From Vicinamibacterales bacterium (GTDB lineage: Bacteria > Acidobacteriota > Vicinamibacteria > Vicinamibacterales > UBA8438): a stretch of DNA of 64,000 nt. The notes beneath the pieces were generated by a model. It worked only from the letters and a program-made list of their open reading frames with translations, was not told the origin of the DNA and ran no database searches. Position 1 is the first letter of the stretch, and every line of letters starts with the position of its first letter. Below are positions 5,560-59,600 of the stretch, piece after piece. The stretch covers positions 417,810 to 481,809 of the forward strand of contig CBDBKJ010000004.1 of NCBI GenBank assembly GCA_965206705.1, written 5' to 3'. The translations under genes were made by a program, and so were the position numbers.

Positions 5560-5718
5560 CCTTGCGGTGGCCGTACAGAACAGCCCCGCCGCCATCCCCC
5601 GGCGGCATCAGCCGTAGTTGGCGTGATGCGGTCGGCGAATGCGGCGGGGCGTTCGAACCGGCGGCCCGCCGGAGCGGGCCTGACCGGAGACTGGACGGAC
5701 CAGAAGCCTGCGCCGTAG
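5560..5718 (+). pseudogene. decayed remnant of a histidine-kinase 3' end (HATPase_c tail)
   Basis: One frame reads ..GGISRSWRDAVGECGGAFEPAARRSG.., resembling G.GL.I.R.IVE.HGG.I.V.S..G.G. The last codons (K)PAP-TAG and about 45 nt downstream match the 3' end of the large kinase gene at 56643. Confidence 0.35.
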
Positions 5719-5768
5719 AAGTCTCGCGCCAGCGAAACTTCCAACGCAACCGTAAGGTCGCGCTGGTG
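5701..5768 (+). repeat. about 62-nt 3'-end / post-stop element, copy 1 (partner in inverted orientation at 56590..56655)
   Basis: cctgcgccgtagaagtctcgcgccagcgaaacttccaacgcaaccgtaaggtcgcgctgg compared with the reverse complement of 56590-56655, cctgcgccgtagaggtttcgcgccagcgaacttccaacgcaaccgtagggtcgcgctgg. Confidence 0.7.
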
Positions 5769-7246: not shown

Positions 7247-8284
7247 TCAGTGGTCCCCGGCATCCTCGGCGCGGGCGCCGGTCAGGATGTTCAACAGGCC
7301 GTAGTTGCCTTCGTGGCAGGCGTACTCGAACATCGGTTCGGCCGAGCGCCGCATCGGCACCGCGACAGTGAACGGCCGGGTGAAGATGACCGGGTCGTCC
7401 ACCGTGTACTCGTAGACCAGGGTGTCGTCGTCGAGACGGGTGAACCGTTCGGTCAGGGTGACGGTCAGGCCGGTTCCGATGGCGGTGGTCGCCGACGGCT
7501 CGAAGCTGCCGGTCTTGTCCGTCATGTTGGTGGTCTGGACCACCAACGTGTCGCCCTCCCAGTGCCCCCGCGAGCTCCCGGCCCACTGGCGGATGCCCGC
7601 CGGCAGCTGCGGGCGGCCGTCGAGCGGAATGACCCGCAGGTCGTGCACCATCTCGTTCAGGATCGCGACGGTGTCGGCGGTCTGAAAGAGCTGCATGTTG
7701 TTGTTGTAGCCGCTCGGCATCATCGGCGGGCCGCTGTTGAAACCCAGGATGCAGCGTTCGGCGAGGCCGCGGTCCTCGGGCCGATCCGCGCCGGTGCCGG
7801 CGCTTCGGACCCGCACCGGCAACGTGATCGGCAGGTCTTCGAGCAGCGATCCCACCTGCCGGAGAGATTCGCCTTCGGGGGTCAACGCGGGCAGCCGGCC
7901 GTCCGGCGGATCGACGATCAGCGACGTCCGGCGATCCTCGACGAACGTCGTGCCGTAGTCGAGCCAGAAGTCGTTGTATCCGCCCACCGCGCGGCCGCCG
8001 CCCCCGGCCGGCAACGGTTCGGACCGCACCTCGCTGGGCTCCAGCAGCCGGGCGCGGCGCGCCGCGACCTGGGTCTCCTGGGCCGCCGCTTCCTCCTCCG
8101 TCAGGAACTCCCGTTCGGCAAGGGCCTCTGGCCGCTGCAGCGGCGTCATGGTGCGAAAGTCCCACACCCCCTGCAGATCCGGCCGGCCGTCGGGCAGCCG
8201 CGGCGGCGTCTGTCCGTCAACCGGGCCTGCGATGAGCGAGAGGATGACGATCGCGCTGAGCGAAACGATGGGACGTGCCCGCAT
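7247..8284 (-). CDS. secreted protein of an uncharacterized family, paralog 1 (C-terminal FEYACHEGNYG motif)
   Basis: Has a signal peptide, then PDLQGVWDFRTMTPLQRP, RTSLIVDPPDGRLPAL, ERCILGFNSGPPM, NEMVHDLRVIPLDG, SRGHWEGDTLVV, ERFTR and FEYACHEGNYGLLNILTGAR. Confidence 0.85.
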   Translation of the reverse strand: MRARPIVSLSAIVILSLIAGPVDGQTPPRLPDGRPDLQGVWDFRTMTPLQRPEALAEREFLTEEEAAAQETQVAARRARLLEPSEVRSEPLPAGGGGRAVGGYNDFWLDYGTTFVEDRRTSLIVDPPDGRLPALTPEGESLRQVGSLLEDLPITLPVRVRSAGTGADRPEDRGLAERCILGFNSGPPMMPSGYNNNMQLFQTADTVAILNEMVHDLRVIPLDGRPQLPAGIRQWAGSSRGHWEGDTLVVQTTNMTDKTGSFEPSATTAIGTGLTVTLTERFTRLDDDTLVYEYTVDDPVIFTRPFTVAVPMRRSAEPMFEYACHEGNYGLLNILTGARAEDAGDH

Positions 8285-8431
8285 TCGAACCTCCCGTGGT
8301 GCAACGAGAAACCGCAGAATCCGCCAATCGAACTGTCAGGGGGGGAACAGTATACCCGCGGGATCGTCGGCGGGCATTCACGCCGCGGCCGGGGACGCCC
8401 GGGCGCTCGCGGGGACGAGGGCGTCCACGGC

Positions 8432-8839
8432 TCACGCCTGGTCGAACCGGACTACGCTCAGGCTGGGAATCCGCCGGAAGTGCTCGTCGCTGGTGAGGAT
8501 CGGTTCCCCTGCGCAGACGCACAGCGTGCCGATCAGGAGATCCATCGTCGGGATCATCATGCCGCGGCTGCGCAGAGCCCACTCGATCTCGCCGTAACGC
8601 GGCGCAAAATCAGGCCCCGGCAGCGCGAGCTCCATGAAGTCGGTCAGTCGAGCCACGCGGTCGAGCTCCCGTTCCGGGTCCCGAGACCGGCGGGCGCCGG
8701 CTTCCAGCTCGCACCGTACGAAGACCGGCATGCGCAGCTTGACGGCGCCGTGCGCGCGCACTGTCCGCGTCGCTCCACCGATCTGTCCGCGACGGCGTTC
8801 GTGCATGAGATCGATCACGAACGAGGTGTCCACGAACAC
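8432..8839 (-). CDS. vapC: type II toxin, PIN-domain ribonuclease VapC
   Basis: GTG at 8839, 2 nt after the antitoxin stop. Sequence VFVDTSFVIDLM...TMDLLIGTLCVCAGEPILTSDEHFRRIP shows PIN acidic residues and a TxD motif. 135 aa. Confidence 0.85.
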   Translation of the reverse strand: MFVDTSFVIDLMHERRRGQIGGATRTVRAHGAVKLRMPVFVRCELEAGARRSRDPERELDRVARLTDFMELALPGPDFAPRYGEIEWALRSRGMMIPTMDLLIGTLCVCAGEPILTSDEHFRRIPSLSVVRFDQA

Positions 8840-8841
8840 GG

Positions 8842-9084
8842 CTACTTCTCCAGCACGACGGGATCCGGCCGATCGCGCTCGCGCTCGTCCACCACCGTCT
8901 CGAGGACGGCGACCGTGTCCCCGGCCAGCAGGACGTCGTCGATGTGGTCGAGGAGGTGCGACGCCGTGTATCGTTCGTCCCGGAGCGTGCGCTTGATTAC
9001 GCGGCTGAACGATTCGCCGGGCCGCTTGCGCGCGGCGAGCAGCTCGTACGATTCCAGGTCGATCGTGATTGTCTTGACGGCCAT
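8842..9084 (-). CDS. vapB: type II antitoxin, VapB-like (MAVKTITIDLESYELL.. family)
   Basis: MAVKTITIDLESYELLAARKRPGESFSRVIKRTL matches the conserved N-terminus of the DUF217/VapB antitoxin family. It lies immediately upstream of vapC. Confidence 0.8.
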   Translation of the reverse strand: MAVKTITIDLESYELLAARKRPGESFSRVIKRTLRDERYTASHLLDHIDDVLLAGDTVAVLETVVDERERDRPDPVVLEK

Positions 9085-9231
9085 GCACTTAGCATACACT
9101 TTTGTGGCCCGTCTTCACGCCCTTCCGCCGTGTCCTCCCCCGGCCGGGTTGACGGCGGCGGGCATCGGAGCGATCATGCGCTGATCGACAGTTTGAAGGG
9201 GACCCGGAAGCAGAGCGAAGGAGGAAGGTCC

Positions 9232-10257
9232 GTGACCATCCAACGATACGCGGCGGCGACGTGTGCGGTGCTCGTTCTCGCGGCAGGCGTTCTCGCGCCG
9301 GTTTCGGCATACGCCCAGCCGGCGGCGACCGCGGCCGATGCCATGCCCCGGACCGCCTGGGGCGCCCCGGACCTCAACGGCGTCTGGGACTTCCGCACCC
9401 TGACGCCGTTCGAACGGCCCGATTCCCTCGCCGATCAGGCCGTGTTCACGGCCGAGGAGGCGGCTCAGTTCGAGGCCGACCGTCTCGCGGCGTTCGCGGT
9501 GCGCGACGACCAGGAGCCGGCGGACGTTGTCGGCAACTACAACCAGTTCTGGTTCGACCCGGGCAACAAGCTCAGCGAGACCCGCCAGACGTCGCTGGTG
9601 ATCGACCCGCCCGACGGCCGCGTGCCGCCCCTGTCGGCCGCCGCGACCACGAGGCAGGAGGCTCAGCGAGAGGCGCGGGCCGGCGTCAATCGCCACTCGC
9701 CGACCTACGGCGGCTGGGTCGAGGACCTCGGGGCGGGCATGTTCGCGGTCCGCTGTCTCCTCGGCTTCAATTCCGGCCCGCCGATGACCCCCGGGGGCTA
9801 CAACCAGAATCTCCAGGTGCTCCAGACGCAGGACCACGTGGTCCTGGTCAACGAGATGGTGCACAGCTCGCGGGTGATCCCGCTCGACGGCCGCGCGCAT
9901 CTCGAAGATGGGGTGCGGCAGTGGATGGGCGATTCGCGCGGCCACTGGGAGGGGGACACGCTGGTCGTGGAGACCAGGAACTTCCTGCGCGAGACCAGCT
10001 TCCGGGGCGGCGTGACCACCGCAGATCTGCACCTCGTCGAGCGGTTCACCCGGGTATCCGACGGCACGTTGATGTATCGGGTGACGGTCGACGACCCGAA
10101 CGCCTGGGATCAGCCCTGGACCTACCAGATTCCCATGACGAAGAACCCGCAGCCGCTGTTCGAGTACGCGTGCCACGAAGGCAACTACGGGCTCTACAAC
10201 ATCCTGGCCGGCGCGCGGTTGCAGGAAGACGAGGCGGATGCGGCGGCCCGCGACTGA
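9232..10257 (+). CDS. secreted protein of the uncharacterized family, paralog 2
   Basis: GTG at 9232 follows the RBS gaaggaggaagg. It has a signal peptide and the same motif series (PDLNGVWDFRTLTPFERP ... FEYACHEGNYGLYNILAGAR). Confidence 0.85.
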   Translation: MTIQRYAAATCAVLVLAAGVLAPVSAYAQPAATAADAMPRTAWGAPDLNGVWDFRTLTPFERPDSLADQAVFTAEEAAQFEADRLAAFAVRDDQEPADVVGNYNQFWFDPGNKLSETRQTSLVIDPPDGRVPPLSAAATTRQEAQREARAGVNRHSPTYGGWVEDLGAGMFAVRCLLGFNSGPPMTPGGYNQNLQVLQTQDHVVLVNEMVHSSRVIPLDGRAHLEDGVRQWMGDSRGHWEGDTLVVETRNFLRETSFRGGVTTADLHLVERFTRVSDGTLMYRVTVDDPNAWDQPWTYQIPMTKNPQPLFEYACHEGNYGLYNILAGARLQEDEADAAARD

Positions 10258-10339
10258 AGGGCCGGAACCGGCGGTGGAGCGGTTGCCGGAGCGACGACGA
10301 ACGCACTCGACAATCGTCGACGATGACAGGTGGGAATCG

Positions 10340-11248
10340 ATGCTGACGAGAAGAACCCTTCTGCTGGCGCCCTTGGCGGTTCCGCTCGCGCGGCTCGCCG
10401 GTGCGCAGTCGGCCGAGCCCGGCCGGATGCTGCTGTCGATGCACCAGAACACCTCCCGCGCCGCCGGCTATCGCGGCTCGCTCGAGGGCTGGGCGCGGGC
10501 GGGCATCCGGTACGTCGAGCTGAGTGACCGGCTGCTGTTGGACTTCCTCGCCAACGACACGCTGCCGGCGGCGCGGCGCGTCCTGACCGACGCGGGGTTG
10601 ACGCCGGTCTCCGCTGCGGTGGTGCTGCCGGACCTGTGGATTCCGGGGCCGGCCCGGGAGGCCTCGCTCGACACCTGGCGGCGCCGCTGCGAGCAGTTCG
10701 CCAGCCTGGGGCTGCAGAAGATCTACTCGCCGTCGGTGACGAATCGGCGGGTCACCGCGGACGACTTCGACGCGACCCCGGCGTGCATCCACGAGGTGGG
10801 GGAGATCACCGCCGAGTTCGACCTCACCGCGATGATCGAGTTCACGCGGACGTCGACGCACCTGTCCACGCTGACGTCGTCGCTGGCGATGATTCGGGCC
10901 GCCGCCCATCCCGCCGTCCGGCCCATGATCGACTTCTTCCACTTCTGGTCGGGTCTGAGCAAGTTCGAGGACCTCGACCTGCTCGAGCCGGGCGAGCTGG
11001 CCCATACCCACTTTCAGGACCTGCTCGATACGCCGCGGGAGCTGATCGACAACGACTCGCGGCTGATTCCCGGTGACGGCATCGCCCCCGTCGTCCGCAT
11101 CCTCGAGAAGCTGGCCGAAAAGCAGTTCACCGGCGCGCTCTCGGTCGAGCTGTTCCGGGCCGAGCTCGTGCAGGGGGACCCCTTCGAGGTGGCCACCGAG
11201 ATCCGCGGGAAGTGCGAGGCGGTGATGCGGCAGGCCCAGGTTCTGTAG
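10340..11248 (+). CDS. sugar phosphate isomerase/epimerase (xylose-isomerase-like TIM barrel) with a Tat-like signal
   Basis: MLTRRTLLLAPLAVPLARLAGA, followed by TIM-barrel AP-endonuclease-2-type sequence (..IRYVELS.., ..IEFTR.., ..HFQD.., ..LSVELF). Confidence 0.75.
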   Translation: MLTRRTLLLAPLAVPLARLAGAQSAEPGRMLLSMHQNTSRAAGYRGSLEGWARAGIRYVELSDRLLLDFLANDTLPAARRVLTDAGLTPVSAAVVLPDLWIPGPAREASLDTWRRRCEQFASLGLQKIYSPSVTNRRVTADDFDATPACIHEVGEITAEFDLTAMIEFTRTSTHLSTLTSSLAMIRAAAHPAVRPMIDFFHFWSGLSKFEDLDLLEPGELAHTHFQDLLDTPRELIDNDSRLIPGDGIAPVVRILEKLAEKQFTGALSVELFRAELVQGDPFEVATEIRGKCEAVMRQAQVL

Positions 11249-21880: not shown

Positions 21881-21988
21881 CTAGTGGACCGTCCTGCATG
21901 AAAGCTGTCCATGCCGCTACCCCATTTCTTCAGCAATTGCGGGTGCGCGGCGCCGGCCGGACGGAAAAGCTCGTTCCAGAACAGTCAA
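21881..21988 (+). mobile_element. MITE-like 108-bp unit 1, starting at a CTAG
   Basis: Imperfect terminal inverted repeats: ctagtggaccgtcctgc versus the reverse complement of its end, ctagttgactgttctgg (13 of 17). About 92% identical to unit 2. Confidence 0.55.
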
Positions 21989-22096
21989 CTAGTGGACCGT
22001 CCTGCATGAAAGCCGTCCAACCCGCTACCCCGTCTCTTCAGCAATTGCGGGTGCGCGTCGGCGGCCGGACGGAAAAGCTTGTTCCAGGACAGTCAA
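21989..22096 (+). mobile_element. MITE-like 108-bp unit 2, in tandem with unit 1
   Basis: ctagtggaccgtcctgc ... ggacagtcaa (TIR 15 of 17). It is followed directly by the CTAG that flanks IS copy A. Confidence 0.55.
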
Positions 22097-23829
22097 CTAG
22101 CCCGGATTTCTCACAGCTCGTCGAGATCGGGCCTGATGCGGCGCGGCTGGGGTTCCGGGCGGCCATATCGGACGCCGGCGGTGGTCTGGATGTGGGCGAC
22201 GACGTGCGCGTGGCGCCAAAATCGGCCCGGTTAGCACACCACACGCGAAAGGACCCCGTGTCCCCCTGCAGTCGTGAACGTATGCCGCCACCTGGCCGAC
22301 CGTCAGGCCGGGTCGGGCGGCGAGCGCAAACGTTGAGCGGCCATGATGAACAGATCGGCGTCGGGCGCCAGCTCGGACAGCGCCACCCAGATGCACCGCA
22401 CGGTGACGCGGACGTGGGCGCCGATCTTGAGCAGCCGCAGCCGTAGCGTATCGCATTGGGCGCGGGCGAGCCGGGTGCCCGCCAGCCCCCGGTCGCGGAG
22501 CTGCTGGAGCAGGACATAGGCCAACGTGGCCCAGTACAGGCGCAGTTGGTTGGCGCGCAGCGTCGCACTGCTGGTCCGGTCGGCAAACAGCGCCAGTTGC
22601 TGTTCCTTGATGCGGTTCTCCATGTCCCCGCGGGCACAGTAGAAATCCTCATACAACGCCTGCGCCGCCAAGGTGTCCGGCGGCAGCGATGTCACCACGA
22701 AGCGTGGATTGGCGCCCGCGGGCAGATGCTCGGCCTTGCCGACCACCCGGCGCTCCCGGCTCCAGCTCTTGCGCGTGCGATAGCGGAAGTCCGCAAACAC
22801 CCGCGCGGCCACCCCGGTTTCCTCGCACTGCGCCTGGGCCTGCGCCAGTTCGGGCGCGATTTGTTCCTTCAACCGAACGTTCTTCGCCAAGCCGATGACG
22901 TAGTCCACCGCATGCTCTTCGCACCAGTTCAGCAGCTCGTCTCGGCAGAACCCCGAGTCCCCCCGAACCACGATGGGGACCGACGGCCATGCCTGCCGCA
23001 CCCGCTCCACAATCCGCGCCAACTCGTCCACCACGCCCGCCGCCCCGTCGATGTTCGAGGGCCGCAACCGCGAGCAGAGCACATGCGCCCCGCAGAAGAT
23101 ATACAGAGGCAGATAGCAGTAGTTCCCGTAGTACCCGTGGAAGAACCGTCCTTCCTGCTGACCGTGCAGCGGATCGTCCGTCGCATCGACATCCAGCACG
23201 ATGCGCGCCGGCGGCGTCGGGTGCGACTCGATGAACACGTCTACCAGCAGGGCGTCGAGCGCCGCTTCGTCATAGGTCACCTTCTTGTACCGGTCAGCCT
23301 CGGCGTCCTTCGGCCCGACCAGTTCCAGCCGGTTCAGCGTGCTCTTCCCCGCCAGCGCGGCCCCCCGGTCTGACGGCCGCACCCGGTTCTCGCCCGTCGG
23401 GTCCGCCTTGCCCACGACAGCCGCCAACAGCGGGTCCCGCCGCAGGGTGTCATGGTCGTTCAGATCTTCGTAGCCCAACGCGACGGCCATCACACGCTGG
23501 GTCACCAAGTCCTCGACCGTGTGTTCGATCAAGCTTGGGTCCCGGTAGTCCTGGAAGCACTGCGCCGCGCGTCGGCACACGTCGGTGCACCTTTCAACCG
23601 CCCGCAGCAGCAATGCCCCGGCATTGGAAGTGATCGTTCCGCCCTCGAAGCTGGCGACCAGCCGACGACGACCGACCCGAGGAAACTCCAGCTGGATTGG
23701 TGGCTTACTTCGCGTACACTGTGTCGACAAGGGGCTGCCTCCGTGCATGGCTTGAAGTTATTGCCACAACAACACTTTACGCCATTACGGGCAGTCTCTT
23801 GTTCACCACCGGTGAGAAATCCGGGCTAG
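22097..23829 (-). mobile_element. IS1380-family insertion sequence, copy A (IS proper 22101..23825, flanked by CTAG direct repeats)
   Basis: Perfect terminal IRs cccggatttctcac / gtgagaaatccggg, with CTAG at 22097-22100 and 23826-23829. It is identical to copy B except for one substitution (t at about 22232 versus a at about 51131). Confidence 0.9.
22303..23748 (-). CDS. IS1380-family DDE transposase
   Basis: 481 aa. GGTITSNAGALLLRAVE.., FFHGYYGNYCYLPLYIF, ..VRGDSGFCRDELLNWCE.. are typical of IS1380-family transposases. Confidence 0.9.
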   Translation of the reverse strand: MHGGSPLSTQCTRSKPPIQLEFPRVGRRRLVASFEGGTITSNAGALLLRAVERCTDVCRRAAQCFQDYRDPSLIEHTVEDLVTQRVMAVALGYEDLNDHDTLRRDPLLAAVVGKADPTGENRVRPSDRGAALAGKSTLNRLELVGPKDAEADRYKKVTYDEAALDALLVDVFIESHPTPPARIVLDVDATDDPLHGQQEGRFFHGYYGNYCYLPLYIFCGAHVLCSRLRPSNIDGAAGVVDELARIVERVRQAWPSVPIVVRGDSGFCRDELLNWCEEHAVDYVIGLAKNVRLKEQIAPELAQAQAQCEETGVAARVFADFRYRTRKSWSRERRVVGKAEHLPAGANPRFVVTSLPPDTLAAQALYEDFYCARGDMENRIKEQQLALFADRTSSATLRANQLRLYWATLAYVLLQQLRDRGLAGTRLARAQCDTLRLRLLKIGAHVRVTVRCIWVALSELAPDADLFIMAAQRLRSPPDPA

Positions 23830-25258
23830 ACGGCGAGGCCGGGCAGCGGGCCGCTGACGTCGATGAAGTCGCCGCGCTGCCCGCGCGCGTGCTTCAGGCC
23901 GACTTGGTCGACGTCCAGCCCCATCGCGCCGGCGACGCTCACCAGCATGTGCTGGTGGGGGAGGCCCGAGAACCGCGTGGCGCCGCCCGTCAGGACCTGG
24001 GACGGCACGCGCATCTCCGCCGGCGTCTCGTGCGGCCAGTACAAGTAGCGCCCGGTCCTGAGATAGCAGTAGTTCCCGTAGTACCCGTGAACGCCCAGGC
24101 GCCGCCGATGAGCACCGGACAGTAGTGACAGTATCCGTGCCACCCGTCGCCGAGCTCCGAGCCCCAGACGATGAGGGTGTTGTCCATGACCGACTGTCCG
24201 CCGGCGTCCGGAATCGCCTCGAGGGTGCTCACGAGGCGTGCGACCTGGCTGGCGTGACGGCGGACGTAGTCGCTCATCGCGCCGTACTTGGCCGGGTCCT
24301 CGTGGATGTAGTGCGCGATGCCCTTGTGCACCTTGTCGCTGATGTGGTCGGCGCCGAACTCCGCCGTGGGCATCTCGCCGAGCGACAGCGAGACCACCCG
24401 GGTGATGTCGCAGCTGAATGCGGCCGCGATGACGTCGGTGAAGGCGTCGAACCGCAGGTCGTACCGCTCGAACTCCGCCGCGGGGCGCGCCGGGGCCTCG
24501 CAAGCGAGGGTGGCGAGGCTCTCCAGCCGATGACCCAACCGCTCGACCAGTCCGAAATGCGTCTCGAGCCGGGCGCGTTCGCCGGCCGTGAAACGGGGCG
24601 CCAGCTCTCGATACTCGCGATAGGCGAAGTCCAGCGTCGTGCGGCGGCGTCTGCCCACCGCGTCGCCGGACGAAGCCGGCCCGAAGACCCGGTTCCAGGC
24701 CCCCAGCGGCGACCGCTCGGCCGGCAGCCGCATGCCCCCCAGGCTGTAGCTGATGGGCCGGCCCGCCTCGAGGGCGGCGTCGAGCGACAGCTCGAGCGAG
24801 GGAAGCCGGTCGGCTCTCGCGATGCGCGCGGCGACGAGCTGATCGAGGGACGGCGATACGGCCCGCGTATCCCGCGCCGCGAAATCGGCGTTGTCGCCGG
24901 TCCAGGCGTGAATCCAGCCCCGGTCGTGGCGGTTGCCCCCGGTGTCGAGCTCGGCGGTGGCGAGCGACAACCCATCGAGCGCGAGCAGGCGCTGCCGGTG
25001 CGCGTGCAGCGGGGCGAGCGGCCGGCTGAGGTCACCCTCGGCGAGCGGGGCCAAGTCGAGCGTCCAGGGCCCGGCCGTGGACCGGCCGGGGGGCTGCATC
25101 CGCCAGGCCTCGTAGGGCCAGCCGTGGCAGTGGCTGATGACGACGAGGCGCCGCGGCGGCAAGGCGGCCGGGGCCAACGCCCGCAGCGCGGCATCGGGAA
25201 TCGCCGCGCCGAGGGCGGTGAGTCCCCCCAACTCCAACAGGTGTCGTCGCGAGATCAT
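23826..25258 (-). pseudogene. DUF1552-family protein gene, frameshifted by a 29-nt insertion
   Basis: Starts at ATG 25258 (MISRRHLLELGGLTALGAAIP) and reads to ..GDGWHGYCHYCPVLIGGAWAF. A 29-nt insert then shifts the frame. The C-terminus RTGRYLYWPHETP..FIDVSGPLPGLAV* continues in ORF 23826..24503. Confidence 0.8.
24061..24089. repeat. 29-nt segment identical to an internal part of the IS1380 transposase gene (23111-23139 and 52010-52038)
   Basis: agatagcagtagttcccgtagtacccgtg occurs at 24061-24089 and inside both IS copies, where it encodes HGYYGNYCYL. Removing it restores the DUF1552 frame (..AWAF-RTGRY..). Confidence 0.9.
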
Positions 25259-27101
25259 TCGTGCCCTCCCGGCGCGCCGCCCGGCCGCCGTCGGAAGAGG
25301 TCGCTGCCGACAATCGAGGCCAGCAACGTCTTGATGGAATCGTCGGCGCGGAAACCGGCCTGCAGCGCGTCGAGCCCGGGGGGCGCCGCGTCGAGCCGAT
25401 CGCCGAGGGCGTAGCGCGCCCAGTGCAGCACGTAACAGTCCCTCACCCGGCCGCTGGCCGCAAGCTGGCGCGCGAAGTCGACGCCGTCGGTGAACGTGAT
25501 CCGTTCCCCGCCGGCCAGCGCCAGCGATCCGCTCGCATCGACCGGCTGCCCGTTGTCGTGCGACCGCCACCGGCCGACAGCATCGTAGTGCTCGAACGCG
25601 AATCCCGGCGGGTTGATCGTCCGGTGGCAGGTGTTGCAGGTCCCCGGACGGGTGGCGGAGGCGGTGCGCTCGCGGTTGGTCCTCTCCGCGGCGAGGGTGT
25701 CGGGGGGCAGCGCCGTCTCCGCGCCCTGGACCGGCGTGCCGAGGTGCATGCAGGCGAGCCGCTCGAGCACCCGCACGCCGCGCAGGATGGGCCCCGGCTG
25801 CACCGCGTAGGCGCCGAGGGCGAGCACCGACGGCAGGGTCAGCACCCCCGCCCGCTCCTCGGAAGGGAAGCTCGCCGGATAGAGGGTCAGAGGCTTCCGT
25901 CGCCCGATCGAGGCCACCACGAGATCGATCGTCCGGGTCACCTCGGGGCCCTCGATGCGCTTCGCGTTCTCTCCGTAGATCGGCGCGGTGGCCTCCGACA
26001 TGTAGCCGTGGTGGTCGGTCATCAGGGCCGTGAACGTGCCGGCGCCGTCGAAGAGGGTCTGTTCGACGAACAGCTCGGTCTCGATCTTCGGCGAGTGGCG
26101 CACCGGCCCCATGATGGCCGGCCACTCCACGTCGTCGTCGCGCGCGGTGGCGAGGCGCGGCTCGACCCCGAACAGCGGCCCGAAGGCCCGGCGGCCGGCG
26201 CGACCAGCAGGACGTCGTCGGTGCCGAGCCACTGGTGGTGGAAGCGCACAAGGGCGGGGCGGGCCTTCGGGTCGTCGAGCATCCGGCGGGCCTGGGCCTC
26301 GATGCCGGCCCGGGTGGCGAGCTCGCCCGTTTCCGCGGCCGCGAACAGCGCCTCGTCGGGCATCGAGTCCCACAGGAAGTAGGAGAGGCGCGACGCCAGC
26401 TCCCACCGGCTCAGGGGCGCAGAGACGGCGCCGTCCGCCCCCCGGCGCGGGTCGATTCTGAAATGGAACGTGGGCGTCTGCAGAACCCCGGCCACCGTCA
26501 GCGCGACCGCCTCGTCGAGCCGTCCGGCCGCCGCATTGGCCTGCCAGAAGCGCTCGAGGCGGCGGATCTCCCCGGCGTCGAGAGGCCGGCGGTAGGCCCG
26601 CCGGGCGAAGCGCTCGAGGCTCGTCCACGCACAGTTCCTTTGCTCGGCGGCGGGCAGGGAGGTCCACGCCTCGCAGGCGAAAAACGCCGGCGAGACCAGG
26701 GCGAACGATGCGAAGTGCATCGCCGCGAGGTGCAGCTCTTCCACCTGGTAGGACGACGGCGCCTGCCCCTGCGCGATGCCCGCGAATCCGTTGGAGCCGG
26801 CCTCCGTCGGAAACCGCCAGGGCCAGACCGGCGGGGGCGGCGGCGCGAAGACGCCCTTGCTCGGCTCGCGCCGGGGACTGATGCGGTCGGCGAGGGCGGG
26901 ACGCGCCGGCCACTGGTCGCCGTCCCGGGGAAAGCCGAGCAGGTCCGCGATGGTGTTGTTGTACTCGGCCGGGGTCAGGGCCAAGGGGGCGGCCACGGGG
27001 GGAGCGCCCACGGCTGGGATCGTCTGGCCGGCGGCGGACCAGGATGCCGCGACCCCGGAAAGAACCGAGGCCAGCGTCGCCGCTGCGATTCGGTTTCTCA
27101 T
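25255..27101 (-). pseudogene. DUF1592/DUF1588/DUF1595-family protein gene (usual partner of DUF1552), with one frameshift
   Basis: ATG at 27101 (MRNRIAAATLASV..) reads to ..VRFHHQWLGTDDVLLV in ORF 26022..27608. Homology continues as ..RRAFGPLFGVEP..CNTCHRTINPPGFAFEHYD.. in ORF 25255..27198. The shift is near 26190-26205. The stop overlaps the DUF1552 start (ATGA). Confidence 0.75.
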
Positions 27102-27967: not shown

Positions 27968-28043
27968 TGGCGTCCCCAACGGGATTCGAACCCGTGTCTC
28001 AGCCTTGAAAGGGCTGAATCCTAGGCCTCTGGACGATGGGGAC
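27968..28043 (-). tRNA. tRNA-Glu (anticodon UUC), CCA encoded
   Basis: The reverse complement is GTCCCCATCGTCCAGAGGCCTAGGATTCAGCCCTTTCAAGGCTGAGACACGGGTTCGAATCCCGTTGGGGACGCCA. It has a 7-bp acceptor stem, the anticodon loop CTTTCAA, and a GGTTCGAATCC T-arm. Confidence 0.92.
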
Positions 28044-28225: not shown

Positions 28226-28654
28226 ATGGACTGTCAGCACGAGGACCCGATCATGCCCGATGAACAGATTGCGGCGCTTGAACGGCAACACGCACACCTT
28301 CGCAGTCAATTCGCCTCCATCGGCGAGATGCGCTCCGGTTCGCTGGCCGAGCGCTTCCGACCATGCGGCAAGGCTGGGTGTCATTGCGCCAAGCCAGACG
28401 ACCCCGGGCACGGTCCGGTCCTGTCCCTGACACGCAAGCAGGCTGGCAAGACGGTCACACGCATCATCCCGGCCCAGGCCGGACCGGAGACGCAGGCGCG
28501 GCTCGCCGAGTATCGCCGCTTCCGGCAATTGTCGAAGATGTTCATCGAGGTCAACGATGCACTGAGCGAGGCGCGCCTGGCGACCGGCAGTGCAGCAAAA
28601 AAAACCGCAGACGGCGGTGACCGCCGAGTCGCTGGCGGCCGAAGCGGCACGTGA
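28226..28654 (+). CDS. IS ORF1: DUF6788-like zinc-ribbon N-terminal part of the ISKra4 transposase
   Basis: ..GSLAERFRPCGKAGCHCAKPDDPGHGPVLSLTRKQAGKTVTRII.. The frame is separated from ORF2 at the A8 tract 28597-28604. Confidence 0.7.
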   Translation: MDCQHEDPIMPDEQIAALERQHAHLRSQFASIGEMRSGSLAERFRPCGKAGCHCAKPDDPGHGPVLSLTRKQAGKTVTRIIPAQAGPETQARLAEYRRFRQLSKMFIEVNDALSEARLATGSAAKKTADGGDRRVAGGRSGT

Positions 28655-29960
28655 GGTCGAGCGGCTGCTGGGGGCCGACGCGGCGCAGACGCTGGGCGAC
28701 TTCGAGGCGGCCGAGACCGCGCTGCGCACTGCCGTCCTGGCGGTGGCGGCTCGTTTCGTTGCCGAGCGGCTCAACGCCGACCACAGTGACCAGCACGCCG
28801 CCGGCCTGCCCTGCGGGTGCGGACAAACGGCCCGCTACGCCGGCCGGCGTGCAAAGACGATCCGCACGGCCCTGGGCGCCATGACCCTGGAGCGGGCCTA
28901 CTACCATTGCGCGTCCTGCCGAACCGGGTTCTGTCCGCGTGACCGGACCCTGGGCATCGACGAGACGACGTTGTCGCCCGCGGCGACCCGCATGACGGCG
29001 GCGGCCGCCGCCCGAGTCAGCTTCAAAGAGGCCAGCACGCTGCTGGACGAACTGGCCGGACTCGCCATCGGCCCCAAGCAGGTCGAGCGGACCGCCGAAG
29101 CGCTGGGGCGCGTGATCGCAGCCGACGAACGCCAAGCCGTCGAGCCGGAGGCGCACCGCGTAAAACCTACCCTGTATCTCGGCGTGGACGGTACGGGCAT
29201 TCCCGTGCGCAAGGCCGAAACCGCGCAGCGCCAGGGCAAGCAGCCCGACGGTTCGGCCAAAACCCGCGAGGTCAAGCTCGCGGTCGCCTGGACGGCCGAA
29301 CGCCGTCACCCCAAGACCGGCATCCCGATGCGCGACCCGGACTCAGTCTCCTACACGGCCGCCATCGAGACGGCCGCCAGTCGCGATACCGACCGCGAAC
29401 CCTCCCCCTTCGCCCAGCGCGTCTGCCGCGAAGCCGAACGCCGCCGTTTCGCCGATGCCGACCGCAGGGTCATCCTCGGCGACGGCGCGCCCTGGATCTG
29501 GACCCTCGCCGACGAGTGTTTCCCCGATGCGATCCAGATCGTCGACATCTTCCACGCCAAAAGCCACCTCTGGGACGTCGCCAAGGCCATCTACACACCC
29601 GGGTCCGACCTCGCCGCGCAGTGGGCGAAGCAACGACGCGACGAACTCGATGCCGGTCGCATCAGCGCCATCGTCGCCGCCCTCGCCCACCACGCCCCAA
29701 CCTGCGACGAGGCCCGCAAATGCATCGCCTATCTCAGCCGCAACCGTAAGCGCATGCGCTATCCCGCGTTCCGGGCCAGGGGCCTGTGCGTCGCCACCGG
29801 CGTCGTCGAGGCTGGCTGCAAACATGCCGTCGGGGCGCGCCTCAAGCGCGCCGGCATGCACTGGTCCGTCAACGGCGCCAATGCCATCCTCGCCCTGCGC
29901 TGCTGCATCCTCAGCGGCCGCTTCGAAGGCTTCTGGGAACGACGAAACGCCGCCGCATAA
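28590..29960 (+). CDS. IS ORF2: ISKra4-family transposase catalytic part
   Basis: ..YYHCASCRTGFCPRDRTLGI.., ..LYLGVDGTGIP.., ..ILGDGAPWIW.., ..IVDIFHAKSHLW.. With A7 instead of A8, ORF1 and ORF2 fuse into one protein of about 577 aa. Confidence 0.8.
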   Translation: MQQKKPQTAVTAESLAAEAAREVERLLGADAAQTLGDFEAAETALRTAVLAVAARFVAERLNADHSDQHAAGLPCGCGQTARYAGRRAKTIRTALGAMTLERAYYHCASCRTGFCPRDRTLGIDETTLSPAATRMTAAAAARVSFKEASTLLDELAGLAIGPKQVERTAEALGRVIAADERQAVEPEAHRVKPTLYLGVDGTGIPVRKAETAQRQGKQPDGSAKTREVKLAVAWTAERRHPKTGIPMRDPDSVSYTAAIETAASRDTDREPSPFAQRVCREAERRRFADADRRVILGDGAPWIWTLADECFPDAIQIVDIFHAKSHLWDVAKAIYTPGSDLAAQWAKQRRDELDAGRISAIVAALAHHAPTCDEARKCIAYLSRNRKRMRYPAFRARGLCVATGVVEAGCKHAVGARLKRAGMHWSVNGANAILALRCCILSGRFEGFWERRNAAA

Positions 29961-38745: not shown

Positions 38746-38925
38746 GCGCGGCGGCATCAGCCCGCGGTGCGGGTCATGGCACCGGCCCGCTCGCGCAATC
38801 GCGCCAGCGGGCGTCCGGTCGCCGGCCGCATCCGACGGCGGCCGCGCGGCGGCATCAGCCCGCGGTGCGGGTCATGGCATCGGCCCGCTCTCGCAACCGC
38901 GCCAGCAGGCGTCCGGTCACCGGCC
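38746..38925. repeat. tandem duplication (period 98 bp) of the 3' end, including the stop codon, of the aminotransferase gene; a more decayed third piece lies at about 38716-38750
   Basis: 38746-38827 and 38844-38925 share about 82 nt with 5 mismatches. Both encode ..TGR(P/L)LARLRERA(G/D)AMTRTAG* on the minus strand (stops at 38757 and 38855). Confidence 0.85.
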
Positions 38926-50325: not shown

Positions 50326-50825
50326 AGACGATTCTCCTGCTCCGTCACGGCAAGTCGAGCTGGGAGGCCGGACCGATCCCGGATCGCGAGCGGCCACTGG
50401 CCCCCCGCGGCGTGAAGGCGGCGCGCTGCATGGGCCGGTTTCTGGGGCGGACGGGGCCGGCCCCCGACCGCATTCTGTGCTCGCCGGCGGTACGCGCGGC
50501 CGAGACGCTGCGGCATGCCGCCGATTCGGGAGCCTGGCCGGCATCGGCGGATATCGTTCCCGAGCTGTACGGAGCCTCGTCGGGCGGCGTGCTGGCCTGT
50601 CTCTCGGCCGTTGCCGCCCCCGTCGAGACGCTCCTGGTGGTGGCCCACGAACCGGGCTGCTCGGAGACGGCGTCGGCGCTCATCGGCGGCGGCGGGGTGC
50701 GGTTTCCCACCGCCGCGCTCGCGTGCATCCGGCTGGACGTGGTCAGGTGGGACGAGGTCCGACCCGCCTGCGGCGAGCTGCTCTGGCTCGTCACCCCGCG
50801 CCTGCTGGCCCGGCTTGCCGTGTAG
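50322..50825 (+). CDS. SixA-type histidine phosphatase family protein
   Basis: ATG at 50322 overlaps the parA-like stop (ATGA). MKTILLLRHGKS (the RHG catalytic motif), ..ERPLAPRG.., and ..VVAHEPG. Confidence 0.8.
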   Translation: MKTILLLRHGKSSWEAGPIPDRERPLAPRGVKAARCMGRFLGRTGPAPDRILCSPAVRAAETLRHAADSGAWPASADIVPELYGASSGGVLACLSAVAAPVETLLVVAHEPGCSETASALIGGGGVRFPTAALACIRLDVVRWDEVRPACGELLWLVTPRLLARLAV

Positions 50826-50860
50826 CCGGCCGGCTCGACGTGTAGCCGGCCGGCTCGACG
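50821..50860. repeat. perfect 20-bp tandem duplication spanning the stop codon of the SixA-like gene
   Basis: tgtagccggccggctcgacg is present twice (50821-50840 and 50841-50860). Confidence 0.9.
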
Positions 50861-50975: not shown

Positions 50976-50997
50976 CTAGCCCGGATTTCTCACCGGT
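50976..50997. mobile_element. solo IS1380 end: CTAG plus 18 nt matching the right-end IR in inverted orientation, abutting copy B
   Basis: ctagcccggatttctcaccggt equals the reverse complement of the IS right end (..accggtgagaaatccgggctag). It extends 4 nt beyond the sequence shared by both IRs, so it is the right-end type. Confidence 0.7.
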
Positions 50998-52728
50998 AGC
51001 CCGGATTTCTCACAGCTCGTCGAGATCGGGCCTGATGCGGCGCGGCTGGGGTTCCGGGCGGCCATATCGGACGCCGGCGGTGGTCTGGATGTGGGCGACG
51101 ACGTGCGCGTGGCGCCAAAATCGGCCCGGTAAGCACACCACACGCGAAAGGACCCCGTGTCCCCCTGCAGTCGTGAACGTATGCCGCCACCTGGCCGACC
51201 GTCAGGCCGGGTCGGGCGGCGAGCGCAAACGTTGAGCGGCCATGATGAACAGATCGGCGTCGGGCGCCAGCTCGGACAGCGCCACCCAGATGCACCGCAC
51301 GGTGACGCGGACGTGGGCGCCGATCTTGAGCAGCCGCAGCCGTAGCGTATCGCATTGGGCGCGGGCGAGCCGGGTGCCCGCCAGCCCCCGGTCGCGGAGC
51401 TGCTGGAGCAGGACATAGGCCAACGTGGCCCAGTACAGGCGCAGTTGGTTGGCGCGCAGCGTCGCACTGCTGGTCCGGTCGGCAAACAGCGCCAGTTGCT
51501 GTTCCTTGATGCGGTTCTCCATGTCCCCGCGGGCACAGTAGAAATCCTCATACAACGCCTGCGCCGCCAAGGTGTCCGGCGGCAGCGATGTCACCACGAA
51601 GCGTGGATTGGCGCCCGCGGGCAGATGCTCGGCCTTGCCGACCACCCGGCGCTCCCGGCTCCAGCTCTTGCGCGTGCGATAGCGGAAGTCCGCAAACACC
51701 CGCGCGGCCACCCCGGTTTCCTCGCACTGCGCCTGGGCCTGCGCCAGTTCGGGCGCGATTTGTTCCTTCAACCGAACGTTCTTCGCCAAGCCGATGACGT
51801 AGTCCACCGCATGCTCTTCGCACCAGTTCAGCAGCTCGTCTCGGCAGAACCCCGAGTCCCCCCGAACCACGATGGGGACCGACGGCCATGCCTGCCGCAC
51901 CCGCTCCACAATCCGCGCCAACTCGTCCACCACGCCCGCCGCCCCGTCGATGTTCGAGGGCCGCAACCGCGAGCAGAGCACATGCGCCCCGCAGAAGATA
52001 TACAGAGGCAGATAGCAGTAGTTCCCGTAGTACCCGTGGAAGAACCGTCCTTCCTGCTGACCGTGCAGCGGATCGTCCGTCGCATCGACATCCAGCACGA
52101 TGCGCGCCGGCGGCGTCGGGTGCGACTCGATGAACACGTCTACCAGCAGGGCGTCGAGCGCCGCTTCGTCATAGGTCACCTTCTTGTACCGGTCAGCCTC
52201 GGCGTCCTTCGGCCCGACCAGTTCCAGCCGGTTCAGCGTGCTCTTCCCCGCCAGCGCGGCCCCCCGGTCTGACGGCCGCACCCGGTTCTCGCCCGTCGGG
52301 TCCGCCTTGCCCACGACAGCCGCCAACAGCGGGTCCCGCCGCAGGGTGTCATGGTCGTTCAGATCTTCGTAGCCCAACGCGACGGCCATCACACGCTGGG
52401 TCACCAAGTCCTCGACCGTGTGTTCGATCAAGCTTGGGTCCCGGTAGTCCTGGAAGCACTGCGCCGCGCGTCGGCACACGTCGGTGCACCTTTCAACCGC
52501 CCGCAGCAGCAATGCCCCGGCATTGGAAGTGATCGTTCCGCCCTCGAAGCTGGCGACCAGCCGACGACGACCGACCCGAGGAAACTCCAGCTGGATTGGT
52601 GGCTTACTTCGCGTACACTGTGTCGACAAGGGGCTGCCTCCGTGCATGGCTTGAAGTTATTGCCACAACAACACTTTACGCCATTACGGGCAGTCTCTTG
52701 TTCACCACCGGTGAGAAATCCGGGCTAG
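50996..52728 (-). mobile_element. IS1380-family insertion sequence, copy B (IS proper 51000..52724)
   Basis: Same 1725-bp element as copy A, in the same orientation. Flanks are gTAG (50996-50999) and CTAG (52725-52728). Confidence 0.9.
51202..52647 (-). CDS. IS1380-family DDE transposase (copy B)
   Basis: The 481-aa translation is identical to the copy A transposase. Confidence 0.9.
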   Translation of the reverse strand: MHGGSPLSTQCTRSKPPIQLEFPRVGRRRLVASFEGGTITSNAGALLLRAVERCTDVCRRAAQCFQDYRDPSLIEHTVEDLVTQRVMAVALGYEDLNDHDTLRRDPLLAAVVGKADPTGENRVRPSDRGAALAGKSTLNRLELVGPKDAEADRYKKVTYDEAALDALLVDVFIESHPTPPARIVLDVDATDDPLHGQQEGRFFHGYYGNYCYLPLYIFCGAHVLCSRLRPSNIDGAAGVVDELARIVERVRQAWPSVPIVVRGDSGFCRDELLNWCEEHAVDYVIGLAKNVRLKEQIAPELAQAQAQCEETGVAARVFADFRYRTRKSWSRERRVVGKAEHLPAGANPRFVVTSLPPDTLAAQALYEDFYCARGDMENRIKEQQLALFADRTSSATLRANQLRLYWATLAYVLLQQLRDRGLAGTRLARAQCDTLRLRLLKIGAHVRVTVRCIWVALSELAPDADLFIMAAQRLRSPPDPA

Positions 52729-56589: not shown

Positions 56590-56655
56590 TGCGAGCCAGC
56601 GCGACCCTACGGTTGCGTTGGAAGTTCGCTGGCGCGAAACCTCTACGGCGCAGGC
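56590..56655 (-). repeat. about 62-nt 3'-end / post-stop element, copy 2 (see 5701..5768)
   Basis: It covers the last codons (EPAP-TAG) of the kinase gene plus a downstream hairpin-containing segment, and is about 90% identical to 5701-5768. Confidence 0.7.
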
Positions 56656-59600
56656 TCCTGGACCAGGGCGGGGACGTCCGTGATCGGCAGCGTCATGGTC
56701 ACGGCGGTGCCTCGGCCCCGTTCGCTGGTGACGGCGATGGTCCCGCCGTTCAGCTCCACGTTGCGCCTCGCAATCGCCATTCCCAGGCCCGTGCCGGTGA
56801 TGCGGGTCGAGAAGTACGGCTCGAAGATGCGGGCCAGCACGTCGGGTTCGAGTCCGACGCCGGTGTCCCGGATGATCAGCTGTACCTGCGCGGCGTGCCG
56901 CACGACGCCGATCGCGAGGGTCCCCTCGTCGGGCATCGCGTGCAGGGCATTGTCGATGATGTTCGTGATGGCCCGCTGTATGAGTACCGCGTCGAGTTGC
57001 AGCCGGGGCAGATCCGGAGGCAGATCGGCCGACAGGGCGATCCGGCCCTGGAGGCCGGGTCGATAGGGGGCGACGACCTCGTTCACGAGGGCCGCCAGAT
57101 CCGCGGGCGCGCGCTTGGCGACGGGGGAGGAGGCGTAGCTCGAGAACTCGGAGGCGATCTGACGCAGGATCCGGACCTGCTTCAGGATCGCGTCGACGCA
57201 CCCCTGCAGCACCGGGGTCAGCGGCGATCCGCGGTCGGCGTGGACGCGGAGCAGATGCTCGGCGTTGAGCTGGACCGGGGTCAGGGGGTTCTTGATCTCG
57301 TGGGCGACCTGACGGGCCATCTCCGTCCAGGCTTCGAGACGGTGGGTGCGCTCGAGCTGGCGTCTCTGGGCGTCGAGCTCGACGGCCATCCGGTTGAAGT
57401 CGGCCTCGAGGATGACGAGCTCGTCGGCCGACCGCGCCGCCACCTGCTTCTCGATGCGGTCCGCCTGGAGATCGGATACGAGCGGACCGAACTCGCCCCG
57501 CGCGACCCGGCTGGTGGCCCGGGTGAGCCGCTTGACGGGATTGGCGATGCCGCGGGCGATGGCCCAGCCGACGAACCCGACGACGGCGGCAAAGAAGAGG
57601 GCGAACCCCAGCACCCGCCGGTTGAGCTCGTCGATCTCCCCCTCGATCTCCTGTTGCCTCGACGCCAACGGCACCGTCAGAATTACGTCGCGTCCCCCGA
57701 CCCGGACCGGCGCCGCCGCCAGCTGATACCGGAGGGACCCGGCCGCGTCCTCGCCCACGAAGCTGGGCAGCTGGTCGAGGGCGATGGCGCGATAGACCCT
57801 GTCCGGCGTGCGCGTCGGCAACACCCCGGACGCGTAGAGGTCGCGGGTGCTCGTGGCGACGAGATGCGGGCCATCGAAGATGTTGACGTCCTGTCCGATC
57901 ACCTGACCGATGCGGACCAGGATGTCGTCGGTGAAGCGGGCGATGATCTGCCCGTCGGGCGACTGGACGGTGACCGACTCCTCGATGACGCTGCGCGCCA
58001 CCGCCGCCACCCGTACCGCGCCGGCCTCGACGTCGGCCCGCAACTGATCGGCGAAGTACCCCTGAATCAGGAGCGCCACCACCACCACCGGAGCCGTCGC
58101 CACCCCCACGAACCAGATCTGCAGCTTGAGGGCGAATCGCGTCCGCACCTCGCGGTAGGGCAACCGCCGCCGGAGCCGCGGAAACACCACGGCGGCGAGG
58201 ACCACCGCCAGCAGCACGAAACCGCCGGCGGCGATGACCAGCACGGCGATCTCGGAGAGATGCAGCAGGTGGTCGAACGCGGTGTGCGCCGGATAGCCAA
58301 TCGCGTAGACGCCGGCGCGGGTATTGGTGAGGAACACCTCGTACCGGCGGGAGTCCTTGACGAGACGCGTCCAGAACGGGCTGCGGGACGCGTAGATCCG
58401 CTCGAACAGGGCATCGTCGATCGGCCACGCGCTCTGGTTCGAGAGGAACGCCGGCTGCCGTCCCCATCCGTAGATGACGAGCTCGACCTCGTGGCCCGGC
58501 GCGCCCGGCGCCGATGCGCTCCGGCCGGTCTCGAACGGCTCCACGTAGGGACTGCGCGAGGCAATGAACGGCAGCGACTCGTAGTCGACCTGCGCGACGT
58601 GGACGACCACGCCGCCGGCAGGGGTTCCACCCGCGCCGCCGCCGGGTCCGCAGAAGCCCCGTTCGGCATGCAGCATGCGGCGCTCTTCGGCGCCGAACGG
58701 CGCAACTTCGCCGAATACCTCCCATTGGCAGCCGGTGCCGGTCCACCGCGAGGCGGTCACCGAGTCGGGGATGTTCAGGGCGAATCGGCTCTGCAGCTCG
58801 CCCGTCGGTCCGAAGATCTCGACGGCCGAGGTCAACCTGGACGCGGCGAGGGCGGTCCGGTTCCAGATGCCGAACGCGGAATCGATGCCGGTTCCGGTCT
58901 GGTCCGGCGCCCCGGACAACGCCTGCAGGGCCGGCCGGGCGCGGAGCTCGGCGTCGATCTCCTCGAGGGTCCGGTCGAGCTGGCGGTTGAGGTCCTGCGG
59001 ATGCTCGGCCGCCCGCACGGCGTAGCCGGTCGCCACGAGATTGCGCTTCGCCTCGTCGCTCAGGGACACGAGCGAGAGATACAGGGGCAGCGCCGGCACC
59101 AGGATGGCGCACAGGGTCGCGAGCAGGCGGGTCACCGGATCGGTGCGGCGGAACCAGTGCATCAACCGCTGCCCGCGGAACGCGAGGACGCTCCCGGCCA
59201 GGCACAACAGCAGCGATGGCGCGAGCGGCGCCCATCCCGCGGCGGCGGCGAGACCGGCGGGGACCAGGATCGACAGCAGCAACCGCCAGGCGCGCCGCGA
59301 GAGCGGCCGGACCGGCCACCGGGCGAGGGCGATGGCCATCAGCAGCGCCGTGGCCCACACCGTCGAGGCGGTTGCGAGGACGAGCGCGAGCTGGAGAGCG
59401 GTTCGGGCCGGGTCGAACGGCTGCAGGGACGTGTGCAGCAGGTCCATCGACGCGCCGGCCACCGTGTCCTGCAGGAACCGGTGGTGGATTCCGAGCAGCG
59501 CGGTCATCAGCACCAACGCGCCCGGGGGCACGGCCCCGAGTCCGGTCTTCGTTTCCGAGCGCCGGGCCGGCCTGAACCACTGTCTGCGGTTGGCGCTCTC

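Follow-up and report, generated by a model that had tools for sequence, protein, structure and literature searches.

A 29-nt copy of IS1380-family transposase sequence disrupts a DUF1552 gene in an uncultured Vicinamibacterales genome

Introduction

In eukaryotes, templated microinsertions are a well-studied mark of error-prone repair of breaks; bacterial cases, to our knowledge, come almost only from selected laboratory revertants. Here, we describe an insert of this kind in a 64-kb stretch of the genome of an uncultured member of the Vicinamibacterales (contig CBDBKJ010000004.1; this whole stretch is referred to below as the window). A 29-nt sequence identical to a part of the transposase gene of an IS1380-family insertion sequence (IS) is present inside the adjacent DUF1552 gene and shifts its reading frame. 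The insert is most likely the result of a rare DNA-repair or copying accident, of a sort not often met in wild bacteria.

The insert has much in common with the products of SPDIR (short-patch double illegitimate recombination) in Acinetobacter baylyi, a rare and non-programmed mutation in which an unrelated gene acquires a short ectopic patch with a sequence-traceable donor (Harms et al. 2016; bioRxiv 10.1101/2023.11.22.568220, 10.1101/2024.07.02.601687). It differs from them in its microhomology of 2 nt + 1 nt, in being a pure insertion and in having a cis donor at 921 bp, and it is found in a natural, uncultured Vicinamibacterales genome, whereas the SPDIR cases are selected revertants. A second likeness is to the eukaryotic end-joining pathways mediated by polymerase theta or by synthesis-dependent microhomology-mediated end joining (SD-MMEJ), where fillers of tens of nucleotides are copied from near the break after priming on 1-4 nt, with abortive synthesis followed by rejoining, and where the orientation of the filler is set by the template strand (PMC2943611, PMC2895639, PMC11724301). 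Compared with these fillers, the template of the present insert, at ~0.9 kb, is further away than is typical, and a single event is at hand. We know of no polymerase theta homologue in bacteria.

Bacterial nonhomologous end joining (NHEJ) by Ku and LigD joins ends with little or no homology and is able to insert DNA at genomic breaks, as was demonstrated in Sinorhizobium meliloti (PMC6379672). Its spontaneous insertions are, unlike the insert described here, a few untemplated or fill-in nucleotides or else large supplied cassettes, and in the bacterial NHEJ literature we came across no case of 29 nt being copied from genomic sequence close by. A bacterial polymerase with reported polymerase theta-like end-joining and template-switching activities is the group II intron-like reverse transcriptase G2L4 (bioRxiv 10.1101/2022.03.14.484287); the window contains no reverse transcriptase gene, and nothing ties G2L4 to the insert. 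An earlier note on this DNA called such footprints rarely documented in bacteria, a statement that needs the qualification that SPDIR in A. baylyi and NHEJ-dependent DNA capture in S. meliloti (PMC6379672) have already been shown.

The 29-nt insert and the interrupted DUF1552 gene

The sequences involved are located in the window as follows.

22101-23825, minus strand: IS1380-family copy A, 1725 bp; its terminal inverted repeats, CCCGGATTTCTCAC, are perfect over 14 bp, and the duplicated target, CTAG, is at 22097-22100 and 23826-23829
23111-23139, minus strand: nearest donor copy of the 29-mer, in the transposase gene of copy A, where it encodes HGYYGNYCYL; direct orientation
23826-25258, minus strand: DUF1552 (HXXSHH) gene, now a pseudogene (PF07586), on the same strand as the transposase gene
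24061-24089, minus strand: ectopic 29-nt insert in the DUF1552 gene, in coding sense CACGGGTACTACGGGAACTACTGCTATCT; exact match, with boundaries ambiguous by 3 nt (TCA)
51000-52724, minus strand: IS1380-family copy B, 1725 bp, which differs from copy A at 1 nt (position 22232, T versus A)
52010-52038, minus strand: second possible donor, in copy B, ~28 kb off; exact match, direct orientation

The 29-mer AGATAGCAGTAGTTCCCGTAGTACCCGTG occurs exactly three times in the window, always on one strand (23111-23139, 24061-24089 and 52010-52038), and no match was obtained in 100 dinucleotide-preserving shuffles even with up to three mismatches permitted. In a self-comparison of the window, it was the sole exact repeat of its size that is not explained by IS copies, paralogous genes or tandem duplications. 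When exact matches to the IS beyond its two copies were collected, the next longest was an 18-nt fragment of the IS end, followed by a chance background of at most 14 nt. Both observations with which the earlier note began, the identity of the 29-mer to the transposase gene of the two IS copies and its position 236 bp beyond the IS end, agree with these matches and with the boundary of copy A: since copy A spans 22101-23825, the insert starts 236 bp past its end.

The interrupted DUF1552 open reading frame (ORF) consists of 390 native residues and a 32-aa out-of-frame tail that ends at 23990; the last 77 native residues are found in another frame, which runs down to the stop codon at 23826-23828. 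When the 29 nt are removed, a full-length protein of 467 aa is recovered, and orthologues of 465-467 aa align with it over 100% of their length with up to 90% identity. The frameshift is thus caused by the insert and is undone by its deletion, both as the note had claimed.

The note had also proposed a comparison with orthologous genes. In GTDB metagenome-assembled genomes of Vicinamibacterales and other Acidobacteriota, the 29-mer was absent from all 80 orthologous loci even at five mismatches, and an uninterrupted GGxWAFxTGRY motif was present in 78 of them; the insert was likewise missing from all four closer metagenome loci. Alignments with the five closest orthologous loci (L001, L002, L003, L005 and L006; 87-90% nucleotide identity where measured) show a clean 29-column gap with both flanks in register, and relative to these loci no host bases were lost at the insertion. 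Among 70 aligned sequences, the 29-nt insert is the only rare insertion of at least 8 nt in the DUF1552 coding region, and no rare insertion with a local second copy, which would point to recurrence in the IS family, was found in the 70 aligned orthologous loci. Where relatives do carry frameshifts in this gene, the cause is a 1-nt indel or, once, an 8-nt deletion, in each case in a low-coverage long-read contig.

Judging from these alignments, the 29 nt are an insertion into a formerly intact DUF1552 gene. The insertion took place within the lineage of the window organism. It is recent, since insert and donor are 100% identical and the DUF1552 gene is otherwise free of lesions. Neither the allele nor the species was met with a second time when the frameshifted product and one neighbouring protein were looked up by exact match. 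The 29-mer was not found in GTDB representative genomes or JGI metagenomes, and a gap-tolerant pattern covering both alleles had no match in JGI metagenomes. Whichever mechanism produced it, the insert is without function in itself; what it does is truncate the DUF1552 protein after residue 390.

The donor element

The IS contains a single ORF (22303-23748, minus strand) for a 481-aa transposase that matches PF13701 with 511 bits and NF033539 with 398 bits (cut-off 180), which places it in the IS1380 family. Along with the DDE transposase match, the element has the terminal inverted repeats and the short (4-5 bp) target-site duplication of that family, and both copies possess the 14-bp perfect repeats and the CTAG duplication. 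Copy A landed exactly on the TAG stop codon of the DUF1552 gene, the TAG being part of the target CTAG. More generally, in both copies the CTAG (23826-23829 and 52725-52728) shares its TAG with the stop codon of a gene that lies upstream in the same orientation (DUF1552 and Ppx/GppA, respectively). Nearly all related IS copies examined (L004 and L007-L023) have on both flanks either CTAG or a sequence one base different (CTAA, TTAG or ATAG), and their target sites are frequently at the ends of other IS elements that also terminate in CTAG.

The nearest donor sequence, in direct orientation, lies 921 bp downstream of the insertion point as read in the coding sense. In 17 related IS copies (88-93% identical) the corresponding sequence is CACGGGTATTACCGGCACTACTGCTATCT, which differs from the 29-mer at 3 of 29 positions. 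Among IS copies, the exact 29-mer is present only in A, in B and in one 99.8%-identical copy (L004) that comes from another sample and has an unrelated context. Because the related copies differ at these 3 positions, sequence comparison identifies the resident IS variant as the donor, and the transfer as directed from the IS to the gene. No notable secondary structure was detected at the donor site.

The opposite history, in which a native DUF1552 sequence was captured by the IS lineage, is ruled out: the motif is kept in related IS1380 transposases (HGYYRHYCYL, 88-93% identity) and is missing from all orthologous DUF1552 genes. The insert is not a product of transposition either, a point on which the earlier note was right. 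It is internal to the IS, 686-714 nt from the nearest IS end, with no inverted repeat, and lies at a site devoid of the CTAG that, exactly or with one base changed, the related copies target. The same features (an IS-internal fragment without IS ends at a site without the CTAG target) rule out a remnant of a third IS copy. An off-target CRISPR spacer is ruled out as well: 3 nt are duplicated instead of a repeat length (~28 bp), and the window contains no array or cas gene.

The space into which copy A was inserted is also occupied in a relative. On the 6.2-Mb contig of L005, the same intergenic region downstream of DUF1552 (7557-10391) holds ISAZ013-type and IS5-like DDE_Tnp_1 elements, and the spot thus appears to be a recurrent IS landing site.

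Junctions and insertion site

Two further features bear on the insertion site.

24048-24102, minus strand: pre-insertion hairpin in the coding-sense strand, GCGCCTGG-GCGTT|CAGGA-CCGGGCGC, with stem arms at 24095-24102 and 24048-24055; the two halves of the loop occupy 24090-24094 and 24056-24060
24120-24139, minus strand: host stretch CACGGATACTGTCACTACTG, which encodes HGYCHYC, resembles the donor and is conserved in orthologues

The host sequence before insertion is GCGTTCAGGAC, read as GCGT|TCA|GGAC, and in the window it has become GCGT-TCA-CGGGTACTACGGGAACTACTGCTATC-TCA-GGAC. As TCA is present at both edges of the insert, the boundaries are ambiguous by 3 nt. With the donor context CTTC-CA-CGGG...TATC-T-GCC, host and donor overlap by CA (2 nt) at one junction and by T (1 nt) at the other. 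Past these shared bases, the flanks of host and donor have little in common: going outward over the next 10-12 nt, the left side agrees at 4 of 10 positions and the right side at 0 of 12. The hairpin has a stem of 8 bp and a loop of 10 nt, and the insertion point falls in the exact middle of that loop. Of the junctions in the window, 2.35% fall within the loop of a hairpin of this class, on one strand or the other; of its non-IS positions, ~1.6% are within 236 bp of an IS end, as counted from coordinates alone.

With these data, several of the earlier statements have to be modified. It is correct that the insert is not flanked by IS ends; a repeat is present, however, in the form of the 3-nt TCA at the junctions. 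The resemblance of the upstream host stretch to the donor is real and unusual (Smith-Waterman score of CACGGATACTGTCACTACTG against the 29-mer 10, top 0.85% of 80-nt windows), but this stretch is unaltered and lies upstream of the junction at a distance of 27-50 nt, and its supposed role as a guide is not supported. A simple template-switch or annealing geometry would have replaced CACGGATACTGTCACTACTG or left a non-extendable 3′ flap; neither is observed, and models anchored in the HGYCHYC homeology were therefore set aside. The term "microhomology-guided" applies in the minimal end-joining sense (2 nt + 1 nt), the junctions having no extended microhomology.

Origin of the insert

Of the classes of explanation at hand, a templated filler or a template switch, which the earlier note had put forward, is still the best available. 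The account we lean towards, tentatively and at a little less than an even chance, is that the 29 nt are a mutational scar of a one-off event, namely a short templated filler laid down while a DNA break in the DUF1552 gene was being rejoined. The break would have occurred at the apex of the small hairpin, and the 5′ strand on the IS side would have been resected over ~1 kb, leaving the transposase region single-stranded. The 3′ end of the other side (...GCGTTCA) could then have paired by 2 nt (CA) with the exposed IS strand, 921 nt from the break, and a polymerase would have copied ~27 nt (CGGG...TATCT). The short product would have dissociated and been rejoined to the true end of the break, with an overlap of 1 nt (T) or none. 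The outcome would be the one seen: a direct-orientation 29-nt copy of IS-internal sequence, intact host bases, a +2 frameshift and a protein truncated after residue 390. The enzymes may have been LigD and Ku of NHEJ or another end-joining polymerase with a ligase; the template may have been either IS copy, copy A being the nearer.

The absence of host loss, the 2-nt and 1-nt overlaps, the cis donor and its orientation are together what a templated end-joining filler would give. The side on which the donor lies and its orientation are those expected if the opposite, resected break end served as the template. As in described fillers, there is a single junction without loss of flanking sequence, the template is near the break, and the copy begins at a priming microhomology (CA) within the 1-4 nt range. 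The position at the centre of the hairpin loop and the second short insert at copy B, which may also be IS-templated, likewise favour this account. Acidobacteria, and also genomes that are large and GC-rich, are enriched for conventional NHEJ (PMC7719229).

Several points weigh against a templated filler. The event is a single one, and the statistics of proximity, orientation and hairpin position are all post hoc. Bacterial LigD polymerase is poorly processive and would not normally be expected to make 27 nt of templated DNA. The 64-kb window is devoid of genes for Ku, LigD or other end-joining functions. No comparable fragment was found in ~260 kb of sequence flanking 18 related IS copies, so nothing supports a recurrent process. 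Finally, rival mechanisms fit the junction data nearly as well.

One such mechanism is SPDIR, in which a stray single-stranded DNA (ssDNA) fragment of the IS, released for instance when DNA close to the IS was degraded or repaired, would anneal to transiently single-stranded DUF1552 DNA at a replication fork and be incorporated into the nascent strand like an Okazaki fragment. SPDIR depends on cytoplasmic ssDNA and is suppressed by RecA, DprA, RecJ and ExoX. It has been demonstrated experimentally in a soil bacterium, where it produces patches of 3 to ~100 bp with an intragenomic donor (bioRxiv 10.1101/2023.11.22.568220; 10.1101/2024.07.02.601687), and the 29-nt size and traceable donor of the insert agree with that description. 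Annealing could have been aided by the homeology 27-50 nt upstream (top 0.85%), and the hairpin loop would be exposed in a single-stranded lagging-strand template. Yet the joints of SPDIR are described as lying in microhomologies or extended microhomologies of favourable hybridisation energy, whereas those of the insert share only 2 nt and 1 nt with the donor, with the poor outward matches given above (4/10 and 0/12), and the CACGGATACTGTCACTACTG homeology is away from the joints and unaltered. A cis donor at 921 bp is not predicted by SPDIR, and the events reported are mainly replacements, while the present one is a pure insertion; we consider this origin unlikely, though the likeliest of the rivals. 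The direct orientation and the nearby same-strand donor would also suit an intramolecular jump, in which a replicating polymerase stalls at the hairpin, its nascent end moves 921 nt ahead into the IS, and the polymerase returns after copying 29 nt. Hairpins are a known kind of stalling point, and template-switch mutagenesis at quasi-palindromes is established in Escherichia coli. Such a double switch is nevertheless rather improbable, as replicative polymerases are poor at extending from 1-2 nt of pairing, all that each jump would have, and the return jump would have essentially no complementarity. Templated synthesis is dispensed with altogether if a free double-stranded 29-bp IS fragment was blunt-ligated into a break by NHEJ, which can ligate heterologous fragments into genomic breaks (PMC6379672). 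All host bases would be kept and junction overlaps would be near zero, much as observed; a stable 29-bp duplex is, however, an unlikely intermediate, random orientation would be expected and a nearby donor would be unnecessary, and the three junction bases shared with the donor would be a coincidence with a probability of ~1 in 64. We regard this capture as very improbable.

It is also conceivable, if improbable, that the 29 nt arose in vitro, through template switching during amplification or a chimeric molecule, or in the assembly or polishing of a low-coverage long-read contig. Database relatives stem from long-read metagenome assemblies, in some cases with 2-12x coverage according to their contig names, and contain indels in the same gene; the adjacent gene in the window has a 1-nt homopolymer deletion; and no independent assembly of the species was found in the collections searched. 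On the other hand, errors in long reads are small homopolymer indels and not exact 29-nt copies of sequence from 950 bp away, both flanks are in perfect register with the orthologues, and there is no intragenic frame change in the window outside DUF1552 and its upstream partner. The insert is, moreover, at the centre of a hairpin loop, and its junction overlaps are typical of joining in vivo. From these points we infer, short of proof, that the insert is genuine, and the templated filler introduced during break rejoining is the origin we favour for it.

A second IS-derived fragment at copy B

Only one other IS fragment in the window was above background (E = 0.003).

50976-50997, plus strand: short IS-derived fragment CTAGCCCGGATTTCTCACCGGT, 22 nt, in which the transposase-proximal end of the IS, together with CTAG, is copied in inverted orientation

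It lies directly outside the opposite end of copy B and amounts to a net extra 20 nt, CCCGGATTTCTCACCGGTAG, with a junction overlap of at most 2 nt. The fragment could have arisen by templated synthesis primed on the palindromic CTAG or by deletion of most of an inverted tandem IS. If it was templated, the window would contain two IS-templated fillers, and this would raise the chance of a lineage-specific repair signature to a level that we would still call distinctly unlikely. Under that reading, the lineage may have active end joining with polymerase theta-like synthesis that leaves IS-copied fillers of 20-29 nt at IS-adjacent breaks. The scar near copy A would be the 29-nt insert and that at copy B the net 20-nt one, and the breaks may have been induced by the transposase or by hairpins. 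If true, this would give bacteria a natural equivalent of the templated-insertion end joining of eukaryotes.

Neighbouring genes and other features of the window

A second lesion is present in the gene immediately upstream of DUF1552, a PSD/DUF1588-family gene (~27100-25255, minus strand).

26190-26200 (~26195), minus strand: one C lost from a C run (CCC to CC) of the PSD/DUF1588-family gene, a 1-nt deletion found by alignment with 9 orthologues

The deletion shifts the frame, so that together with the 29-nt insert it disrupts both genes of the pair. In a phase scan of third-position GC (GC3), these two genes were the only ones in the window with an intragenic frame change. Either the two-gene operon is decaying or the C-run frameshift is a residual homopolymer error.

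Three intergenic tandem duplications were noted. The one at 21881-22100 (108 nt x2) consists of units that begin with CTAG, and copy A is inserted at its end; another is at 38746-38925 (98 nt x1.8); and that at 50810-50860 (20 nt x2.5) is at the stop codon of a phosphohistidine-phosphatase-like ORF. An inverted pair of ~70 nt (5697-5766 and 56596-56664), 51 kb apart and 90-97% complementary, is apparently intergenic in both copies and has no Rfam match. A scan of the window against Rfam revealed one tRNA and nothing else. The tRNA gene (27971-28043, minus strand) adjoins an unrelated third IS at 28566-29960 with an ISKra4-family transposase (NF033572, 300 bits). Among the related IS copies from elsewhere, the L019 locus combines the left flank of the L016 copy with the right flank of the L018 copy, which points to an IS-mediated rearrangement between related genomes of different samples.

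Discussion

The insert is a well-resolved natural case of a known kind of rare mutation and not a new system. As a single unreplicated event, it alters no model. It does provide a clean natural example in an uncultured soil acidobacterium, in which the donor, the polarity, the junctions and the pre-insertion allele can all be reconstructed. There is also a consequence for annotation: pseudogene callers and scans for IS fragments would misread such a scar as an IS remnant. For the biology of these bacteria, the insert means that such events do inactivate genes in the wild, and that multicopy IS DNA, besides being a mobile element, can serve as a template.

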